In this document: one piece after another, positions 14,191-53,304 of the stretch
Numbering within the stretch: the stretch's first letter is position 1
How the letters are laid out: each line of letters opens with the position of its first letter
DNA from: Minisyncoccota bacterium
Lineage (GTDB): Bacteria > Patescibacteriota > Minisyncoccia > UBA6257 > JAGOQP01
Direction of reading: 5' to 3'
Assembly (NCBI GenBank): GCA_017991375.1
Contig: JAGOQP010000006.1
Span: forward strand, 3,200 to 67,199
Length of the DNA stretch: 64,000 nucleotides
Position numbers and translations under genes: made by a program
Notes under the pieces: generated by a model
The model's input: the letters and a program-made list of their open reading frames with translations, nothing else
The model's database searches: none
What the model was told of the DNA's origin: nothing

Positions 14191-14351
14191 AATAACCCTA
14201 TTATACCGTATTTATGGCACGAGAAACAACGAAATAAAATATCTAATAAAAGCTATCAACAAAGCCATATTTATTCCTCCTATATAAACAAAAAAGATCA
14301 ATTATAAAAGTTATATCAATATTGGTTGTATAAAAAACAGGCCCCCGGGCA

Positions 14352-14374
14352 TCTTTGGAAAGATTGCCCAAGAG
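14352..14374 (-). terminator. Hairpin terminator downstream of hypothetical gene A
   Basis: GGGCATCTTT-ggaa-AAGATTGCCC, followed by a T-run on the minus strand. Confidence 0.4.
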
Positions 14375-14382
14375 CCAAATGT

Positions 14383-15009
14383 TCAAAGGGAATCGCAAGA
14401 AAAAACCTGACCGCCCCCGATCCAGTCATTCGGGTCGTCAAGCGAATTTGAGCTGACGTACCAAACGCCATAGCCGGCGTTCCAGTTGACGCCAACTGCC
14501 CAAAGCATGCCCTCGGCGCCTCGAACGTAGAAAATGTTGGGAACGCCGTTAGTTAGAAGCAACCCACTCTGACCTTGACCTTGGAGCTTCAACAACTCCC
14601 AGATCTTGGAAAGTGTGGTCTCCACCTTGGCCTCATCTCCGCCCAACTCGGCTATGATGGGGATGTCGCGGGTGGTATGGCGAAGACGGTAATAAGAGAG
14701 CTTTTGCTCTCCAGATGCTTCCTCCACCTTGGTGAGAAAACGCTCTATGAAATTTCTCCCCAGCCAACCAATCTTGACCGGGGCGCCATTGCTCGTATCC
14801 ACCCTAAAGTGATGGGCGGCGACAAATCTACTTGTTGCCGGCACCGTGACGGCGGACACGAAGTCCAAAAGCTTTTTGGCTGCAGTTTTGTCGGCTTCGG
14901 TAACCGTCACAATCAGATCGCCGGACAGGATACGCTCGACGACCGCCTCGCCGCCGAGCTTGTTGAAGATTGCTTCCACGTGACCTAATGTGAACCTTCC
15001 GTATTTCAT
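14383..15009 (-). CDS. Hypothetical protein, family A (paralog of 20569-21072); member of the conserved-promoter gene set
   Basis: 208 aa with strong RBS GGGAGAAGGAA. About 45% identical to the 20569-21072 product across IGW.G..F.E.FL.KVEE.S....LS...L......PI..ELGG......TL.KI...L..QG.GQ.G.LLTNG..NIFYVR. Confidence 0.7.
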   Translation of the reverse strand: MKYGRFTLGHVEAIFNKLGGEAVVERILSGDLIVTVTEADKTAAKKLLDFVSAVTVPATSRFVAAHHFRVDTSNGAPVKIGWLGRNFIERFLTKVEEASGEQKLSYYRLRHTTRDIPIIAELGGDEAKVETTLSKIWELLKLQGQGQSGLLLTNGVPNIFYVRGAEGMLWAVGVNWNAGYGVWYVSSNSLDDPNDWIGGGQVFSCDSL

Positions 15010-20520: not shown

Positions 20521-20548
20521 GACCCCAAGGCACGAATGCCAAGGGGTT
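20521..20548 (-). terminator. Hairpin terminator of gene A' with a central TT-TT mismatch and UUCG loop
   Basis: Minus strand: CCCCTTGGCA-ttcg-TGCCTTGGGG followed by TCTTTTTTTT. Confidence 0.55.
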
Positions 20549-20568: not shown

Positions 20569-21072
20569 TCAACGAGGATTACGAGAGAAAACCTGAGAGT
20601 CAGCGTCGTAACTCAAAAGACAAGACAACGACCTAGATTCGATACCCCAAAAATCGCCGCCCCAGTAAAGGAAAACCGAACAGAGTTCGCCATAAATATC
20701 ACGAACATAGAATATGTTGAAGTGTCCATTAGTCAGAAGAATACCACCTTGCCCACGCCCCTGGGACACAAGAAATTTATTGATCTTAAAAAGAGTCGTT
20801 TCGATTCCATCTTCGCCACCTAACTCAGAGACAATAGGGGCATCACAAGAAGCTCTCGTGAGAGTAAAGATTGAGAGATTGTGATCTTCTGACATCTCCT
20901 CCACTTTGGGCAGAAAATGCTCAGTAAAATGAGGCCCAATCCACCCAATGAGAACGGGTTCATGTTCCGATTCATAAAGACGAAAGTGACGAATGGCGAT
21001 AAAGTTGGCTGGACTTTGAATCTTGATAGCGCCAATGGGTTCAAGAAGACGGATTACCGAGTTTTTATCCAT
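20569..21072 (-). CDS. Hypothetical protein, family A' (paralog of 14383-15009)
   Basis: 167 aa. Its own promoter is TTGACT-18 nt-TATTAT (21137-21166) with a related leader gaacgcacattaactaaaag. Confidence 0.7.
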   Translation of the reverse strand: MDKNSVIRLLEPIGAIKIQSPANFIAIRHFRLYESEHEPVLIGWIGPHFTEHFLPKVEEMSEDHNLSIFTLTRASCDAPIVSELGGEDGIETTLFKINKFLVSQGRGQGGILLTNGHFNIFYVRDIYGELCSVFLYWGGDFWGIESRSLSCLLSYDADSQVFSRNPR

Positions 21073-23096: not shown

Positions 23097-23138
23097 GGGA
23101 CCAAGGATTCACGTGTGGGACACGGGAATCCAAGGTCC
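23097..23138 (-). terminator. Hairpin terminator of gene B; GGACCTTGG...CCTTGGTCC type with a central TT-TT mismatch
   Basis: Minus strand: GGACCTTGGATTC-ccgtgtcccacacgt-GAATCCTTGGTCCC followed by TTTTTTG. Same architecture as the hairpin after the DGR VR. Confidence 0.55.
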
Positions 23139-23161: not shown

Positions 23162-23791
23162 CTACTTGCCAGAGACCGCCAAACGCCTGTTCCGACCGAG
23201 ACAGTTATTCACCTTTTGCCAATATAGATGCCAACCCTTGTCGCTTTGGTCCAGATACGGATAGTAACGGTGGCCACCCTTGCCGAAGACGATGAGCCCC
23301 GGACCATCGATGCAGATCTTCCCCCGTAACCCCATGATGGCAGGAAATTCGTTCTGGTGATCTACCAGCCACATAAGGTGCTGATAGCCAAGCATCTGAC
23401 CGGCAAGAGGAGAACGGCGACGTTCGTACTCGAAGCCGTTAACAAACTCCTCTTCTGAACGAAGCACTGTCCCGAGGATGAGCGTGAGAGCATCAACGGG
23501 CGAGGTGTCGCTCTCGATGCCCCTATTCCAGGAAAACTTCACCTTGAGGTCGGCGAGAATGGGTCGTGGGAGGGCGGGGATGGGAATGGAAAGTGGTTCC
23601 AGTTGGCGAAAAAAATAGCCACTTTCGCTCACCCGAAAACCCCCTCGGATGAAGAGGGAGAATTCTCTCCCCGTCTGTTTGGGATTGACAATACCGACCT
23701 GAACCTGCTCAATCGATAGCTGGCTCCAGTCGGTGTTGGCGGCCAAAGCCGCCAACAAGGTAAACACCTGTTCATTACTCGGACAAGGCAT
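23162..23791 (-). CDS. Hypothetical protein B (Trp/Tyr-rich C-terminus); member of the conserved-promoter gene set
   Basis: Start trimmed to MPCPSNE, with GGGGGAG RBS. It ends ...GCAAG-TAG, like the DGR target gene. C-terminus GWHLYWQKVNNCLGRNRRLAVSGK. Confidence 0.6.
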   Translation of the reverse strand: MPCPSNEQVFTLLAALAANTDWSQLSIEQVQVGIVNPKQTGREFSLFIRGGFRVSESGYFFRQLEPLSIPIPALPRPILADLKVKFSWNRGIESDTSPVDALTLILGTVLRSEEEFVNGFEYERRRSPLAGQMLGYQHLMWLVDHQNEFPAIMGLRGKICIDGPGLIVFGKGGHRYYPYLDQSDKGWHLYWQKVNNCLGRNRRLAVSGK

Positions 23792-23925
23792 AATTTTCTC
23801 CCCCACGGCGGACTTTAACGCTCATGCTTTATTGCAGAACGTTTCCTCTTCGCCGCAGTATTTAGAACACAAAACAATTATGTCCTAAGCACTGCGGCAA
23901 GTATCACAACTAATACCCAAGCAGT

Positions 23926-29021: not shown

Positions 29022-30323
29022 ATGACCCATTCTTTTCGTAAAAAGATATTCTGGATATTTGTAGCTCTATTTGTACTGTTGGCAACCGCGGTGATGTTTT
29101 ATTCAAAAGGATTTCGTTTTGACATACAAACACTTTCCGTAACCAAAACGGGAGCAATTGAAATAGAGAGTACTCCCCGCGCGGTTAATATATACCTCAA
29201 CGAGGAACCATATAAAAACGAATCTAATCTGATACAAAAGGGAACGCTCATTAGTGGTGTTTTGCCGGCACGATACCGACTCGTACTCAAGAAAGAAGGG
29301 TTTTACGACTATGAAAAAAACATTGACGTGCGAGAAAACAGTGTCGTGCGCGTGCTTAACGCGCTCCTTACTCCCACCTCACTCACTATCTCCACTAGCA
29401 GCATACGAGCAACGGGAACACTTATTGCCGATTTTGACCCAGCTGGCAGAGTTATTATAGCCAATGAATCCACGTTCTCACACACTGTTTTTGCGCTTGA
29501 TGGTAATGCAACTCCCACTAACATCAACGCAACAATAGCTTCATTCTTTAAACAAAAAATCGAAAAAGTGTTGTTCTACCCAAAAGAAACAAATAAATTT
29601 CTTGTTAAAACAGCAAAAGGTATTTACCGTGTTGATATAAAAACAAAAGAAGCAACGCCAATCGCGACAAGCTCGATAGTGTTTTTTAAAAAAAGTGGCG
29701 ACAACCTACTGGTGGTTGCGCACCAACCAAAACCCATACAAAAAAAGGGTGTAAAAGCAACGACCACTCCCGCGCTTGCCGATACACTTTCGGTTATTGA
29801 CCTTACACTCAACACCGTTGGATCAACAATCGTTCTTCCTCTTACCACCGCGACCATAAAAGACGTGTCGTTTTCAAATAATCGACTCGCTCTTCTTTTT
29901 GAAAACGGCGATGCGTATATCCAAGAAACCGCCGGGGCTAATATGCTCAAGATCGCGCACGACGCGCAACGCGTACAGTTTTCTCCGGATGGAACAAAAA
30001 TACTTTATCAAGATATCGATGGAAAAACGTTTGTGCGCTTATTGGAAGATGACATAGTATCATTGGACGCGCAAAAAGGGTCAATGCTCCGCATAGCGCT
30101 TATTGATGCCAGCCGCATAAAAGATGTATGGTGGCACTGGGATTCGTATCATCTTATCATCCGCTACCCAAACAAAATAACACTCGCGGAAATAACAAGG
30201 ACCGAACCAAACAACCACTCAACACTCACCCAGGCAACGGGAATAACGTGGTACGATCAATCGACGAAGGCATTGTACATACTCTCTGAAAACAAATTAA
30301 CGCGAGCATCGCTTGAATGGTAA
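29022..30323 (+). CDS. Hypothetical membrane-anchored protein with a PEGA-like domain
   Basis: N-terminal TM (IFWIFVALFVLLATAVMFY), then AVNIYLNEEPY...GVLPARYRLVLKKEGFYDYEKNIDV, which is PEGA-like. Confidence 0.5.
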   Translation: MTHSFRKKIFWIFVALFVLLATAVMFYSKGFRFDIQTLSVTKTGAIEIESTPRAVNIYLNEEPYKNESNLIQKGTLISGVLPARYRLVLKKEGFYDYEKNIDVRENSVVRVLNALLTPTSLTISTSSIRATGTLIADFDPAGRVIIANESTFSHTVFALDGNATPTNINATIASFFKQKIEKVLFYPKETNKFLVKTAKGIYRVDIKTKEATPIATSSIVFFKKSGDNLLVVAHQPKPIQKKGVKATTTPALADTLSVIDLTLNTVGSTIVLPLTTATIKDVSFSNNRLALLFENGDAYIQETAGANMLKIAHDAQRVQFSPDGTKILYQDIDGKTFVRLLEDDIVSLDAQKGSMLRIALIDASRIKDVWWHWDSYHLIIRYPNKITLAEITRTEPNNHSTLTQATGITWYDQSTKALYILSENKLTRASLEW

Positions 30324-30365
30324 TAACAAAAATCTCCCACGATGATTTGTGGGAGATTTTTGTTA

Positions 30366-30845
30366 TTAGCGTTTTGACCACTGCGGAGATTTGCGCGCTT
30401 TCTTGAGACCGTATTTCTTTCGCTCAACCATACGCGGATCGCGAGTAAGAAACCCAAATACTTTGAGTTTTTTGCGAAGTTGTTCATCGTGTTTTACGAG
30501 CGCTCGAGCGATACCATGGCGTACCGCTTGCGCTTGAGATGAGATTCCTCCTCCAGTAACTGAAACCGTGATAACAAACAACCCCAGTAAGTCAGTTTTT
30601 GAAAGTGGGCTTAAAATCAACTTTCGATGCTGTGCCAACGGAAAATATGTTTCCAATGATTTTCCATTTACCGTAACGTGAGAAGAAGATGTTTCGGTAT
30701 GTTCCCCCTCTTTGGGAGCGTGGGGCGCGGTGACAATGCGAACACGCGCGACAGACGTTTTTCTACGCCCAACGCCTTCGGTGTACTTTCCGGCTTTTGC
30801 TTTTAGCGTATGAGTATCACTCTTTTTGGTAATTTTGTGCTCCAT
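30366..30845 (-). CDS. rpsI: 30S ribosomal protein S9 with an N-terminal extension and internal insertion
   Basis: [19 protein letters not shown] and the C-terminal [17 protein letters not shown]. Confidence 0.9.
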
Positions 30846-44855: not shown

Positions 44856-45989
44856 CTATTGAATAACCCCTCCCCCTAACGCACGTCCCCAGTGAGAATA
44901 AAACACCGCCGATTGCCCAGACGCGGGAAACAATTTTTCTTTTGAACCAAACAAAAGAGTGCCGTTTTGCGTTGAGCCCGCGCCAACGAGCGTTGCGCGT
45001 AAAAGTCGTTGACGATATCGCACACGAACAAGACAGTTAACGCGTTGTTTGTGATCGTACGTCGCACGCGAAGCGCTATCAAGCCAATTAATATCAGTGA
45101 TAGCGCACTCATTGCCATACAAACATTCATCACCCTCATATGCGACAATGAGTTGATTACGCGTAATATCTTTTTTTACCACATAGTACGATTTTCCTGC
45201 TGTGTTTGAAAATCCATGCTTCTGACCGACAGTATAAAACCATACCCCATCGTGCTCACCTACTTTTTTGCCATGCATATCGATAATATCGCCATGAGTA
45301 ATGGGAATGTTGTTTTTGAGAAATTCATCAAACTTAAACTTTCCTAAAAAGCACACCCCCTGTGAATCTTTTTTATCTGCCGTTGGAATCCCAGCTTTGC
45401 GCGCAATAGCGCGCACTTTCTTTTTGGTCAGATGCCCAATAGGAAAGAGAATTTTTTCAAATCGCTCGCGCGGAACCTGCCACAAGAAATATGTTTGATC
45501 TTTTGATAAGTCATTTGCCTGGTAGAGAGCATGCTCTTTTTGTATCAACCACTTACCAAAACTAACTTTTGTTTTTAGACGAGCATAGTGCCCAGAGGCG
45601 ACATAATCGGCACCCAACTCTATGGCCTTATCAAAAAACAGCCCGAATTTGATAGCGCTATTGCACACCACATCGGGATTTGGCGTGATGCCCTTTCTAT
45701 AACCATCTAAGAGATACGACACCACGCGCTGTTTATATTCTTTTTCAAGATCAAAAACATAAAAAGGAATACCCAAGTGTTGGGCTACCCGTCGAGCATC
45801 CTCTCCCTCCTTATCTTGACAGCCATCAACATTGTACCCACGAATAAAGCCGCCGATCACTCGATATCCTTGTTTTTGCAAAAGCAATGCCGCGACAGAC
45901 GAATCCACGCCTCCAGACATCGCAACGAGAACTTTTTTATTTTTTTTATTTTTGGAAAACATTTCTTCTAAGGTTATATGTATTTCCAT
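44856..45989 (-). CDS. mnmA: tRNA-specific 2-thiouridylase MnmA
   Basis: PP-loop KVLVAMSGGVDSSVAALLL; the C-terminal domain is conserved. The start may be at 45962, which overlaps the RT 3' end by 17-44 nt. Confidence 0.9.
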   Translation of the reverse strand: MEIHITLEEMFSKNKKNKKVLVAMSGGVDSSVAALLLQKQGYRVIGGFIRGYNVDGCQDKEGEDARRVAQHLGIPFYVFDLEKEYKQRVVSYLLDGYRKGITPNPDVVCNSAIKFGLFFDKAIELGADYVASGHYARLKTKVSFGKWLIQKEHALYQANDLSKDQTYFLWQVPRERFEKILFPIGHLTKKKVRAIARKAGIPTADKKDSQGVCFLGKFKFDEFLKNNIPITHGDIIDMHGKKVGEHDGVWFYTVGQKHGFSNTAGKSYYVVKKDITRNQLIVAYEGDECLYGNECAITDINWLDSASRATYDHKQRVNCLVRVRYRQRLLRATLVGAGSTQNGTLLFGSKEKLFPASGQSAVFYSHWGRALGGGVIQ

Positions 45990-46929
45990 GCTTTATCAAT
46001 CCAAGATAGGAGTTGACAACTTGAGAGCTGTTAGTAGTCCGCAGTTTTTTTATCATCTTTCTTTTTGTGGAAGTTCTCAGGATTCTGTGGTCAGGAAAGG
46101 AAACCCAACCAAGAAAGTCGATGCCCGAAGATAATGCTTTTATAGAAACCTTGCCGGAATGAAGATGAAGTTTAAGGTTATGTTCGAGGAAATGGGATGT
46201 TTGGGAGATGAGGTTGATGAGATAATCCCTGTTTTCCGACAAAACAACAAAATCATCCGCGTATCTGATGTAACACTTCACTCTGAGGATATGCTTTATA
46301 TATTGATCAAAGGAGTTCATATAGACATTAACAAAGAGCTGGGAAGTGAGATTCCCAAGGGGAAGACCAACATCATCTTTTGTTGAGTGAAAACTGTTTA
46401 TGATTTCTTCAAAAAGCCAGATAATACCCTTGTCTGGAATGTACTGTTTGAGAGTAGAGATAAGAATTTGATGGTCTATATTGTCAAAGAACCTTCTGAT
46501 ATCACACTTGAGAGCCCAACAGGTTTTGGTGTTGTTCTGGCTGACTATATAAAAATAATTTCTGAGTTGATTTATGGCCTTGTGAGTTCCTTTATTGAGA
46601 CGACAAGAATAAGATGTATGGGAGAAAGTTTTATCAAAGAAGGGATAAAGGATTCTGTAGATGGCATGGTGTAATAATCTGTCTCTAACTTGAGCTTTGC
46701 TGATAATTCGAGGTTTAGGGTCAGATATTTTGAATTGTTCGTATCCTCCGTGTTTGTAGGTTTTGTTTTGAAGATCGTTACGAAGTGATATAATATTATT
46801 CATCAGTTGGAATTGAAATAACTGGACATCAGATTTGTTTCTTTTTCCTCTGATAAACTCCCTCCAGGCGAAAAGCAGATTATCAATACTGATAATATCT
46901 TCAAAGTTATGATTCAATATAATTTTCAT
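45946..46929 (-). CDS. Diversity-generating retroelement reverse transcriptase
   Basis: Collinear similarity to Bordetella phage bRT: NLLFAWREF.RGKR, DPKPR.IS...RDRLLHHAI, YSCRLNKGTH, motif A CDIRRFFDNIDH, motif B GLPLGNLTSQLFVNVY (the DGR SQ variant), motif C IRYADDFVVL, and GIDFLGW. Confidence 0.88.
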   Translation of the reverse strand: MKIILNHNFEDIISIDNLLFAWREFIRGKRNKSDVQLFQFQLMNNIISLRNDLQNKTYKHGGYEQFKISDPKPRIISKAQVRDRLLHHAIYRILYPFFDKTFSHTSYSCRLNKGTHKAINQLRNYFYIVSQNNTKTCWALKCDIRRFFDNIDHQILISTLKQYIPDKGIIWLFEEIINSFHSTKDDVGLPLGNLTSQLFVNVYMNSFDQYIKHILRVKCYIRYADDFVVLSENRDYLINLISQTSHFLEHNLKLHLHSGKVSIKALSSGIDFLGWVSFPDHRILRTSTKRKMIKKLRTTNSSQVVNSYLGLIKHGNTYNLRRNVFQK

Positions 46930-46990: not shown

Positions 46991-47317
46991 GTGTATAAGT
47001 TATGGCATGAGTTTCTAAATCATTTTCATAAACAATCCAGATACACATTGGGAGAAAAGATTGATAATTTGTTTATTGAAATAATAGAGTTAGTTTTTAC
47101 AGCTATACATCTGAGCAAAGATCAAAAATTTCCGTATCTGCAGAAAGCCAGTATAAAGTTGGATATTCTAAAATTTTTTGTTCAAATGACTTGGGAAATG
47201 GGAATTTTGGACAATAAAAAATATGTTTTGCTTTCGGAAGATTTAGAAGAAATTGGTAAAATGTTGGGAGGATGGTTGAGGCAGTTTATAAAAAACTCCC
47301 CGCAGAAAGCGAGGTGA
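46991..47317 (+). CDS. avd: DGR accessory variability determinant (Avd, four-helix-bundle protein)
   Basis: 108 aa. The C-terminus EDLEEIGKMLGGWLRQFIKN matches bAvd VLIAEVGRILGSWIARVNRK. GTG start. Divergent from the RT. Confidence 0.65.
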   Translation: MYKLWHEFLNHFHKQSRYTLGEKIDNLFIEIIELVFTAIHLSKDQKFPYLQKASIKLDILKFFVQMTWEMGILDNKKYVLLSEDLEEIGKMLGGWLRQFIKNSPQKAR

Positions 47318-47321
47318 AAAC

Positions 47322-47456
47322 AAAACGACTTTCGGAATCCAACGACGCGGCAGTAGGAGTTGAAGTTGTTACTGAGCCAATTGTCGTTCCGATTCCACTG
47401 GCCATCGTTGAAGTTCAGGTACTGAACGTTGCGATTGCCGTTCTCGTCGAGCAGAA
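47322..47456 (-). repeat. DGR template repeat (TR)
   Basis: 135-bp direct repeat of 47794-47928. At all 12 mismatched positions this copy has A on the minus strand, and the codons are AAC/AAT-rich (NGNRNVQYLNFNDGQWNRNDNWLSNNFNSY). Confidence 0.85.
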
Positions 47457-47741
47457 ATGTATGCGACACCATCTATGCCACCATCCCTTAAATACTTTCG
47501 GGATTGAATATTGCTTGGAATCTCCTCCGACAATTATCGGAGTAATTCTCCAGCGTCGCATACCAAGTTGTTTTATTTTTGGAAATATGCAAACTCCCTG
47601 ACGCAAGGCGTACCCGGCGTCACTCTCATTACACATATTTCAGAATTCGGTCGCGTAAAGCCCTGCCTACCAGTAGGCAAACCGCACGCATACGAACCTA
47701 ATATCCGTTTCCACCATATCAGTTTTGTTGAAAATTTAAAA

Positions 47742-47788
47742 GGGACCAAGGAGTCAAGCGCGGCAAGGCGCAAGAACTCCAAGGTCCC
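47742..47788 (-). promoter_or_regulatory. GC hairpin immediately 3' of the VR (DGR target-site hairpin / terminator)
   Basis: Minus strand: GGGACCTTGGAGT-tcttgcgccttgccgcgcttg-ACTCCTTGGTCCC followed by a T-run; central TT-TT mismatch. It lies 10 nt after the target-gene stop. Confidence 0.6.
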
Positions 47789-47793
47789 AAGGG

Positions 47794-47928
47794 AAAACTA
47801 CTTGCGGAATCCAACGACGCGGCAGCAGGAGTTGAAGTAGCTACTGAGCCAATAGTCGTTCCGATACCACTGGCCAACGTGGAAGATCAGGCACTGAACG
47901 TGGCGATTGCCGTACTCGTCGAGCAGAA
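47794..47928 (-). repeat. DGR variable repeat (VR) at the 3' end of the target gene
   Basis: It differs from the TR at 12 positions, all TR adenines (coding strand). Encodes ...LLDEYGNRHVQCLIFHVGQWYRNDYWLSSYFNSCCRVVGFRK*. Confidence 0.85.
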
Positions 47929-48391
47929 CCGTACCGGGGAAGATCAGTACGAACTTCTGCCACTCTTCCGGAACGAGTTCCGGATGGGTAGCTAGACGCT
48001 CGAATGTCCGGTTGCCCGCAGGGAAGGTCTTGGCGAGAGAGCGCTTGAGCATCTCCTCGCCATTAACGCAGGACTCGCCGGCAGAGCAGAACTCGATCAA
48101 CTCGAGCTCCACGTCCTTGCCGGCAAAGGGCTCTTCGTGGTTTTCTGCGACCTCCTTTGCCCAAGGGGGCAGAGTGAGAGCGGAGGGGAGAACAAGGCGA
48201 ATGATGTTGCGCGCCTTCCGCCCAGCCTCCACGATATCGCCAGCCCATTTGTCAATGAGCGGCGACCCGTCCTTGAGGGCATTGTACACGTCCTCGATTG
48301 TGCCACCAAGCCGCTCGACCGCCCTGAAAAGGGCGATGAAAAAGCTGGCGGCAAACCCAAGCCCACTCACGATTGAAGTATTCTTAGCCAT
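47798..48391 (-). CDS. DGR target (variable) protein, small secreted/membrane-anchored
   Basis: Start trimmed to MAKNTSIVSGLGFAASFFIALF (signal/TM) with RBS GGGGGAGGAAG. The VR forms the C-terminal 44 aa. Confidence 0.7.
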   Translation of the reverse strand: MAKNTSIVSGLGFAASFFIALFRAVERLGGTIEDVYNALKDGSPLIDKWAGDIVEAGRKARNIIRLVLPSALTLPPWAKEVAENHEEPFAGKDVELELIEFCSAGESCVNGEEMLKRSLAKTFPAGNRTFERLATHPELVPEEWQKFVLIFPGTVLLDEYGNRHVQCLIFHVGQWYRNDYWLSSYFNSCCRVVGFRK

Positions 48392-48491
48392 ATCTTCCTC
48401 CCCCGGCCCCTCGTTCCGACTCCCATCGGAACCCCAGACCGTTTTGTAGCGCTTCACTCCTCCTCGAGCTCATCTCTTAAAGAAGTTCAGC

Positions 48492-52189: not shown

Positions 52190-52275
52190 ATCCCTTTATG
52201 GTAATAGTACACAAAAAATGCCCCTAAAACAAATCCCGCCCTTTTGGTATTACGAAAAGGGCGGGATGAGTGTTT

Positions 52276-53304
52276 TTAGGCAATGTAATATCGTCCATCA
52301 GAGAGACGCTTGAAATACTTCTTGTTCTGAAGATTGAGCACGATCGTATTGTGTTTTAGCACACGTTGTTGACTCACCAGCTGGACAACGCGATCAACAT
52401 GCGATGGGCCATTTTTTTTGAGCAATTTATGAATAATCTCACGAGCGGTCCCTTCCTCAATACCAAACTCCTTGAGTGAGTACAACCCACGCCCCACGAG
52501 CACAAAGCGTTTATCTTTGATGAGTTCATTGTGCACGGTCTGGGGATGAGCTTTCTTACTATCAAAGCGAACCTTATTAATCTCTTGCGCGATATCACGA
52601 AAATGGAGCGGAGAGCGACGCTTCTTGAGGATGAGATATGATTTATCACGAACAGTTTTCGGTTTTATCTCCGGCCACGAAACAAGTCCCGTATCACCAA
52701 AGGGGCTCACCGCAAATAGTTTTGAGTTGAGTAAAAAGTTAAGAGCGATAAAATCACTCATCTTGTGCTGACGAGCGGCTTGAGCAAATAACTCGTCAAA
52801 TTTCTTGCGTTCAATGACGGCTTCTTTTTTTGTTTTGAGAATCTGAGCAACTTTCGCAATGAATCGCTTGAGTTCTTTAACGTGGTCCGGTTTTAAATAC
52901 CAAAAACCATGGAATTCTTTATTATCCAGAAAAAATTCTGGCGAGCGGAATATGCCAAAAAGCAATTCTACATAGGGCTCACTCAATGCCTGGTCACGCA
53001 AAACAAATTTGAGATCGTTGATAAGAAAGTCGGCGCGGCGCACCCCTCCAACACTTTCCAGATGATCTATACTCTTTTTATAGATACCCAAAAGACGATC
53101 GTTGTCTTGCGCGTGTTTCTCCAATACTTTAAGTGCCGCAACCTCAATTTGGCGCACTCGTTCACGAGTAACACCATATCTTTTTCCAAGAAGCGCCAAT
53201 GTTTTGGGTTTTCCCCCTCCAATACCAAAGCGCTGGACGATAACTTCTTTTTGACGACCTGCAAGTGCGCGCGGCACTAGTTCATCGAGTAATTGTTTAA
53301 GCAT
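52276..53304 (-). CDS. Sigma-70 region-4 (HTH) domain protein with a long unique C-terminal extension
   Basis: The N-terminus RQKEVIVQRFGIGGGKPKTLALLGKRYGVTRERVRQIEVAALKVL is a classic sigma70 r4 HTH. Regions 2 and 3 are absent. Confidence 0.5.
   Translation of the reverse strand: MLKQLLDELVPRALAGRQKEVIVQRFGIGGGKPKTLALLGKRYGVTRERVRQIEVAALKVLEKHAQDNDRLLGIYKKSIDHLESVGGVRRADFLINDLKFVLRDQALSEPYVELLFGIFRSPEFFLDNKEFHGFWYLKPDHVKELKRFIAKVAQILKTKKEAVIERKKFDELFAQAARQHKMSDFIALNFLLNSKLFAVSPFGDTGLVSWPEIKPKTVRDKSYLILKKRRSPLHFRDIAQEINKVRFDSKKAHPQTVHNELIKDKRFVLVGRGLYSLKEFGIEEGTAREIIHKLLKKNGPSHVDRVVQLVSQQRVLKHNTIVLNLQNKKYFKRLSDGRYYIA

Follow-up and report, generated by a model that had tools for sequence, protein, structure and literature searches.

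We have analysed a 64,000-nt stretch of DNA from a Patescibacteria metagenome-assembled genome (hereafter the window), which carries a complete diversity-generating retroelement (DGR) made up of a target gene with its variable repeat (VR), a template repeat (TR), an antisense bAvd gene and a reverse transcriptase (RT). Our subject is a stem-loop with CTTGG in its arms that directly follows the VR, and we consider that it is probably the target-site signal of this DGR. The window has a GC content of 44%, and 52 of its 58 inferred genes lie on the minus strand. The RT and a further gene, named B below, are 100% identical to NCBI proteins of 'Candidatus Pacebacteria bacterium', and the nearest relative in GTDB shows an RRF identity of only 61%. 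The DGR and the hairpin beside it are laid out as follows.

47798-48457, minus strand: active target gene of the DGR; its 219-aa product has homologues among the targets of the related loci L156, L061 and L110
47794-47933, minus strand: VR, located at the 3' terminus of the target gene and sharing 89% identity with the TR
47742-47788, minus strand: hairpin 1, a stem-loop of 47 nt immediately past the 3' end of the active VR
47731-47741, minus strand: T-rich tail TTTTAAATTTT after hairpin 1, in the form of an intrinsic terminator
47322-47461, minus strand: TR, a 140-nt repeat
46991-47317, plus strand: bAvd accessory gene, on the strand opposite to the RT and divergent from it (PF22296, E = 6e-15)
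45946-46929, minus strand: DGR RT (RVT_1, E = 5e-25)

The DGR of the window is active, and its VR is diversifying in populations. All 12 differences between VR and TR in the repeat proper fall at TR adenines (12/12), with one more difference in the tail formed by the initiation-of-mutagenic-homing sites (IMH/IMH*). In a near-identical strain (L003, sample ERR14964774), 16 VR positions differ from the window, with a single one of them outside the TR adenines, and another strain (L005, sample ERR7015365) has a third VR variant. The RT has thousands of homologues in Patescibacteria at 61-72% identity. The bAvd protein also matches NF033474 (DivGenRetAVD) with E = 1e-19 and 70.7 bits, under the curated cut-off of 80 for that model. 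Searches of Pfam and NCBIfam gave no match for the active target protein. A phage origin of the locus was rejected, as its genes are cellular and megablast found no match to phage records.

Hairpin 1 begins 9 nt past the TAG of the target open reading frame (ORF, 47798-48457), at a distance of about 5 nt from where the VR/TR homology ends, which agrees with an earlier note on this DNA that had placed it just downstream of the VR and the target stop codon. Read from 47788 to 47742, the hairpin is GGGACC-UU-GGAGU-U-C-UU-GCGC-[CUUGCC]-GCGC-UU-G-ACUCC-UU-GGUCCC. It contains two CUUG/CUUG tandem U.U internal loops (T.T in DNA), one in the lower and one in the middle stem; accordingly, the TT/TT mismatch described in the note is present, but it is neither single nor central. 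Five copies of CTTG lie inside the hairpin and a sixth overlaps its 5' base (47791-47787), so that six copies stand in phase. The hairpin is unchanged in the near-identical strains L002, L004 and L005. Three further genes of the window belong to DGR-target families, and behind each of them lies a hairpin of the same or a closely similar design.

23162-23806, minus strand: gene B, apparent orphan member of a DGR-target family
23098-23138, minus strand: hairpin 2, of the CCUUGG/CCUUGG type with a T run, about 50 nt upstream of frr
20569-21072, minus strand: gene A', apparent orphan member of a second DGR-target family
20522-20547, minus strand: hairpin 3, of the CCUUGG/CCUUGG type with a UUCG loop and a T run
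14383-15009, minus strand: gene A, fourth member of the DGR-target families in the window, paralogous to A'
14340-14376, minus strand: hairpin 4, GGCUCUUGGGCA...UGCCCGGGGGCC with a T run, after gene A

Hairpin 2, read from 23138 to 23098, is GGACC-UU-GGAUUC-C-CGUGU-[CCC]-ACACG-U-GAAUCC-UU-GGUCC followed by CTTTTTT, and it starts 23 nt past the stop codon of gene B. Hairpin 3, read from 20547 to 20522, is ACCCC-UU-GGCA-[UUCG]-UGCC-UU-GGGGU followed by CTTTTTTTT, and it starts 21 nt past the stop codon of gene A'. The recurrence of the hairpin type after B and A', with CCTTGG on both arms, had been pointed out before, and it is borne out at 23138-23098 and 20547-20522. Hairpin 4, absent from that earlier list, has CUCUUGG in its 5' arm against CCGGGGG, joined by U.G wobbles in place of U.U.

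In hairpins 1-3, the CCTTGG on both arms forms a 2x2 U.U (T.T) internal loop, and a run of at least four T's comes after each; they are the sole clean hairpins of the window that pair a TT/TT 2x2 loop with a T tail. Their stems are built of 5-6 bp, the 2x2 T.T loop and then 4-7 bp, with the second T.T loop in hairpin 1. A 12-bp lower stem is common to hairpins 1 and 2, with one compensatory change from G-C to U-A, and the apical loops are CUUGCC, CCC and UUCG in hairpins 1, 2 and 3; loops differ among relatives too. RNA folding, which the note had proposed as a check, gave -30, -25.1 and -16 kcal/mol for hairpins 1, 2 and 3 with z-scores of -7.8, -5.0 and -3.8, and DNA folding parameters gave the same structures. 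The pattern CCTTGG-N4-34-CCTTGG matched three times in the window against 0.16 expected, and none of 100 shuffles reached three. A standard terminator scan misses hairpins 1-3 owing to their mismatches, and custom hairpin scans were therefore used. Two other identities were rejected: CCTTGG is not a DNA-uptake or other over-represented word, being not enriched across the window (29 observed, 22.5 expected), and an Rfam search for a known RNA family matched only a tRNA.

Within the window, 17 of the 58 inferred genes are followed by a hairpin and T run within 110 nt. CTTGG lies in the stem of all four terminator-like hairpins after target-family genes (4/4) versus 0/13 of the others (Fisher's exact test, p about 4e-4). 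Outside the window, we used 190 kb of relatives' DNA that had been chosen independently of the motif and in which less than one CCTTGG pair is expected anywhere. It contained three strict CCTTGG pairs, all just 3' of VRs (L156, L158 and L162), which amounts to 3/7 of the unselected relative loci, or 4/8 when the window is included. Among the other loci, the VR-flank hairpin of L168 is cccuugGGGACUUUGGACA...UGUCCUGGGUCCC, where the pairing becomes U.G, U.G and U.U, and that of L164 has CUCUUGG. When a covariance model of the lower stem was run over 262 kb, every match with E < 4 lay downstream of a target-family gene, including hairpin 2 (E = 4e-16) and hairpin 3 (E = 0.1). An RRF-based search added five distant relatives (42-61% identity), which served as background DNA only. 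The earlier note had reasoned that a motif recurring at many unrelated terminators would be simply the common terminator style of the lineage; it was found at none of the 13 other terminator-like hairpins of the window and nowhere outside VR flanks in the 190 kb. Accordingly, within the available data, the CTTGG hairpin is not a generic terminator style and is specific to DGR acceptors in the DNA covered.

The hairpin can also be separated from the terminator. L156, L158, L162, L164, L166 and L168 have a VR-proximal hairpin without a U tract and, after it, a separate perfect GC terminator, and because of this arrangement the CTTGG hairpin is distinct from the terminator, the two being fused in the window. 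The U tract is not obligatory, since the CTTGG hairpin stands without one in L156, L158, L162 and L168, and the first CTTGG in the relatives lies 4-18 nt past the stop codon. The note had set the hairpin apart from a generic terminator. On the one hand, this was correct in that the element is not the style of the lineage. On the other hand, the window copies are terminator-like as well, and hence they would be both things at once.

Two observations on other hairpins stand beside these results. At 30317-30372 and 52219-52282, between or after genes, the window has long perfect bidirectional hairpins with A/T-run flanks (-34 and -33 kcal/mol), which are ordinary terminators and formed a contrast set. 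In another Patescibacteria genome, with no DGR adjoining, the hairpin UGCC-UC-GGCGC-[UUCG]-GCGCC-UC-GGCA (L044 13549-13573) lies downstream of an 82-aa ORF (L044 13197-13445) and has a geometrically equivalent tandem U.C/U.C mismatch.

The proteins of the active target, A' and B have no recognisable pairwise similarity, and each belongs to a DGR-target family. Gene A' matches the target of L164, a Jorgensenbacteria DGR, by BLASTP with E = 6e-10, and the VR/TR pair of L164 was verified by 13/16 differences at TR adenines. Gene A matches A' by phmmer with 4.7e-38 and the L164 target with 1.6e-14. For gene B there are 46 homologues, in which conserved and hypervariable positions alternate over the last ~50 residues. 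One of them, P0124 of L168 (54% identity, 5.5e-74), is the target of a full target-Avd-RT cassette whose VR and TR differ at TR adenines in 20/24 cases, and L156 connects the family of the active target with that of B. The AlphaFold model of gene B has a pLDDT of 89.8; Foldseek against the PDB gave no significant match, and the only matches listed with TM > 0.4 were the C-type lectin domains 1sb2_B and 3wbr_A (TM about 0.43).

For A, A' and B, no TR match was found in the 64-kb window, even with TR adenines left free to match anything, and this lack of an adenine-tolerant match rules them out as current targets of the TR of the window. In the ERR14964774 sample, whose VR has 16 changes, genes B and A' with hairpins 2 and 3 show a single difference, one C>T, over 4957 nt. 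B and A' are invariant in two other samples, the sole change being this C>T at 20724 in A'. Because there is no TR match in the window, and because B and A' are also invariant across samples, A, A' and B appear to be orphan or relic targets, provided that no second TR exists elsewhere in the genome. The earlier note's idea of B and A' as remote or relic targets therefore holds as regards family membership and fails as regards current diversification, since the adenine-pattern variability that it proposed to look for at these genes was absent.

Two side observations concern gene B. In L170 (8001-8808, GCA_041664185.1), a B-family gene lies between the efp region and mnmA, the slot that the whole DGR occupies in the window. 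This locus has no Avd, TR or RT, its B-family gene ends in a plain terminator without CTTGG arms, and it looks like a case of DGR loss or replacement. Furthermore, the contigs L171 and L172, from two independent samples, both break at position 1, which corresponds to window 23956, 165 nt upstream of gene B; this shared break suggests a repeat or a variable segment there.

The wider distribution was surveyed by scanning metagenome contigs with the pattern GGACCTTGG-N4-34-CCTTGGTCC-NN-TTT, which gave 105 matches in two groups. The low-GC group, part of which comes from Hainich groundwater, comprises nine distinct sequences of the form cttgGGGACCUUGGAU...AUCCUUGGUCCC, located 4-12 nt past genes ending in ...CGCAAGTAA/TAG, like the window. 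Next to them are homologues of the RT (57-68% identity) or of the target. Some copies resemble hairpin 1 in having two U.U loops, and where the target gene has tandem paralogues (L061 and L110) a hairpin follows each of them in identical copies. These nine DGR-type hairpins have the arms GGGACCUUGGAU...AUCCUUGGUCCC in common and differ in their loops, and a set of 11 distinct sequences has GGACCUUGGA...UCCUUGGUCC in common, with CTTGG in the 5' arm in nearly all cases. Across DGR loci, the sequence of the lower stem is kept, while spacer, upper stem and loop vary and mid-stem pairs change in a compensatory manner. The two T's are partnered by T or G and almost never by A, so that CTTGG stands on the sense strand alone and is often duplicated there.

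The second group of the scan has no DGR link and consists of two gut Firmicutes loci sampled many times together with a handful of others. One of the two lies between a DUF2508 gene and a convergent glgB (L059 6139-6175), and the other beside a DUF772 transposase (L105 7510-7545). In these hairpins and about 60 other gut contigs, GGACC-UU-GG...CC-UU-GGUCC with A/T-run flanks indicates bidirectional terminators; one of the two has a third CCUUGG at its apex, and the one beside the transposase recurs on many contigs. The hairpin design is not exclusive to DGRs; its non-DGR cases are rare for the size of the database, and in this DGR clade it is the rule. A pattern scan of viral contigs gave 37 matches, mostly chance ones in coding regions, and an RT scan there found distant RTs only.

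A related sequence occurs on the donor side of the DGR.

47462-47700, minus strand: conserved covarying RNA structure 5' of the TR, with an invariant unpaired ACTTGG at 47568-47563

In this 5' domain of the DGR RNA, 52 pairs are predicted, 35 of them with compensatory changes among seven loci (the window, L156, L158, L160, L162, L166 and L168). Its longest invariant block is the unpaired ACUUGG, and a long predicted helix joins the segment immediately behind this block to the opening nucleotides of the TR. ACUUGG is present in 7/8 unselected loci and in seven further loci from the pattern scan, whereas L164 has AGCUGG. No Rfam family matches the structure. It may be the RT-recruiting domain of the clade, located 5' of the TR versus 3' in BPP-1.

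With regard to known systems, efficient homing of phage DGRs such as BPP-1 requires a hairpin that lies 4-34 bp after the VR (Guo et al. 2011, PMC3240598). Hairpin 1, at 5 nt, falls in this range, as the earlier note had anticipated in assigning it to the place where DGR targets carry a hairpin or cruciform. Both elements are inverted repeats a few bp 3' of the VR/IMH with a GC-rich stem just past the target stop codon (4-28 nt from it in the window and relatives), and both are present at most targets of related elements. However, the BPP-1 type has an uninterrupted stem of 7-10 bp of free sequence and a constrained GRNA tetraloop, whereas in the CTTGG hairpin the arms are conserved (CTTGG, and GGGACCUUGGAU in one subgroup) and the loop (3-13 nt) and upper stem are free. 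The latter is also longer (26-56 nt), has one to three tandem T.T mismatches and is often fused to a U tract. The published myDGR search rule, a 7-10 bp stem with a GRNA loop (PMC6602519), would miss it.

The nanoarchaeal DGR hairpins (Paul et al. 2015, PMC4372165) are likewise lineage-specific, constrained and VR-proximal in ultra-small uncultivated organisms, but they have a constrained GRA triloop inside the target ORF, in contrast to constrained arms outside it. Group IIC introns, retroelements related to DGR RTs, also use a terminator-like stem-loop in single-stranded DNA as a landmark (discussed in PMC3240598). They recognise the structure regardless of sequence and insert themselves, whereas the DGR hairpin has a conserved motif and the cDNA patch replaces the VR only. 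The four window copies resemble Rho-independent terminators in being GC-rich hairpins with a U tract at gene ends on the coding strand. They differ from them in their conserved mismatches and arm sequence, in belonging to one functional gene class and in the separate canonical terminator of the relatives.

By its position beside the VR, its specificity for DGR acceptors, its conserved arm sequence and its separability from the terminator, we consider, with somewhat more confidence than doubt, the hairpin to be the target-side cis element of a Patescibacteria DGR clade and the counterpart of the BPP-1 hairpin/cruciform, from which a role in homing is drawn by analogy. It would be a clade-specific variant of the known DGR target hairpin; we found no earlier description of it in the literature covered, which did not include the 2017 survey of DGRs in the candidate phyla radiation.

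For the phage element, it has been proposed that the stem-loop prolongs an open, single-stranded state on the lagging-strand template (PMC12875486). In the window, the hairpin would similarly fold beside the IMH when the sense strand of the target becomes single-stranded, either as lagging-strand template or during transcription, and the folded hairpin would keep or mark the 3' end of the VR as accessible to the adenine-mutagenised cDNA. The CTTGG of the 5' arm, which is under sequence constraint, may be read by a factor, possibly the RT-Avd particle. Where the hairpin is fused to a U tract, as in the window, it would also terminate the target gene ahead of the TR RNA unit, and A, A' and B would be orphan targets that retained the element. 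The four target genes are co-directional with replication as judged by GC skew, which lends weak support, as nearly all genes of the window are.

Patescibacteria are the group richest in DGRs. The entry of the mutagenised cDNA into the VR is the unsolved step of DGR biology, called 'still mysterious' in a 2026 paper (PMC12875486), and, apart from homology, the target side is known to contribute just one element, a hairpin with no constraint on its stem sequence. In a large clade of Patescibacteria DGRs, the hairpin instead keeps its arm sequence and has obligatory T.T mismatches, which offers a concrete motif to mutate and suggests a sequence-reading factor. It could also serve as a practical marker for targets and orphan targets missed by tools that seek GRNA tetraloops.

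Several results weigh against a homing role. The role is transferred to this clade by analogy, and the defining features of the BPP-1 type (the uninterrupted 7-10 bp stem, the GRNA tetraloop and the sequence-independent stem) are not found in it. The motif is not universal, being lacking in L160 and L166 (2/8 related DGRs), and the GGACC-UU-GG design is found at non-DGR terminators in gut Firmicutes and elsewhere. All four window hairpins have a U tract and would terminate transcription anyway. The orphans B and A' keep a canonical hairpin though they are undiversified, which a role at the RNA level or in termination explains equally well. Nearest-neighbour energies of U.U versus A.A show almost no strand asymmetry of stability, and the link between the CTTGG of the hairpin and the ACUUGG of the DGR RNA was drawn post hoc.

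This link could nevertheless be followed further. CTTGG may be a sequence code common to the donor, as ACUUGG in the DGR RNA, and to the acceptor, with one to six copies on the same strand, recognised by one reader; we regard this extension as speculative and hold it to be doubtful. The RT-Avd particle or a host single-strand-binding factor may be such a reader, and by binding both motifs it would bring the cDNA-bearing particle to genes licensed as targets. If true, this would be the first sequence-specific DGR targeting determinant beyond TR/VR homology, and it would explain why the opposite arm avoids CCAAG, as the motif would come to lie on the wrong strand if the stem were perfect. Direct pairing between CCAAG in the DGR RNA and the hairpin was rejected, as no conserved CCAAG was found.

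Among the alternatives, we consider first an RNA-level 3'-UTR (untranslated region) element of the target-gene families that takes no part in cDNA homing and whose U.U loops are recognised by an RNA-binding protein or RNase. Such a hairpin would control the termination, stability or expression of the variable proteins and travel with the gene family. This would account for A, A' and B keeping the hairpin without a cognate TR, with no adenine-pattern variation in B and A', for variants with U.G wobbles, which are well tolerated in RNA, for the U.U orientation always lying on the sense strand, and for the U tract of every window copy. However, families beyond pairwise recognition still have the motif, their common trait being that they are DGR acceptors, and the B homologue of L170, in a locus without an RT, has a plain terminator without it. 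In addition, the binding protein is hypothetical. We find this explanation unlikely.

Next, the hairpin could be a relic by descent, with the VR-IMH-hairpin module duplicated or recombined along with the C-terminal domain, and its T.T mismatches being functionless accidents that were tolerated. Of all tandem mismatches, U.U loops with closing C-G pairs rank with the least destabilising, and this, together with the 12-bp lower stem common to hairpins 1 and 2 and the identical hairpins at the tandem paralogues of L061 and L110, is what descent would predict. Pure descent is nonetheless quite improbable, because the arms are conserved while their surroundings diverge freely: they are kept even though RT identity between the loci is only 57-68% and the spacers, loops and coding flanks vary, with compensatory changes in the mid-stem. 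Moreover, the mismatch is almost never repaired to U-A and is only replaced by U.G, and CTTG stands up to six times in phase in one hairpin region.

Finally, that the hairpin is the usual intrinsic-terminator style of the lineage without a DGR connection is very improbable and largely refuted, for although GC-rich hairpins with a U tract at gene ends, and the same design at ordinary terminators of unrelated bacteria (L059 and L105), would fit it, CTTGG is missing from the 13 other terminator-like hairpins of the window, no CCTTGG pair lies outside VR flanks in the relatives, and the element of the relatives stands without a U tract ahead of a real terminator.

Two further observations concern the surroundings of the DGR. 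The first is a feature at the end of the TR.

47298-47314, minus strand: small GC hairpin with a T run and without CTTGG, directly 3' of the TR and overlapping the 3' end of avd

Five relatives have a hairpin of the same kind downstream of the TR, and avd is divergent wherever it was called in relatives. Because a hairpin and T run directly follow the TR, and because avd runs divergently from the RT on the other strand, the TR RNA looks like a short separate transcript and not a part of an avd-TR-rt operon.

The second is an insertion in the strain of sample ERR7015365 (L005/L001 7024-8102), where an IS30-like element of about 1.08 kb lies between efp and the DGR target at a point equivalent to window ~48645. 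It encodes a 335-aa transposase with an HTH_38 domain and is located near a predicted promoter at 48631-48602. The same strain also has the different VR variant described above, and in it the CTTG immediately 5' of hairpin 1 carries a T>G change.
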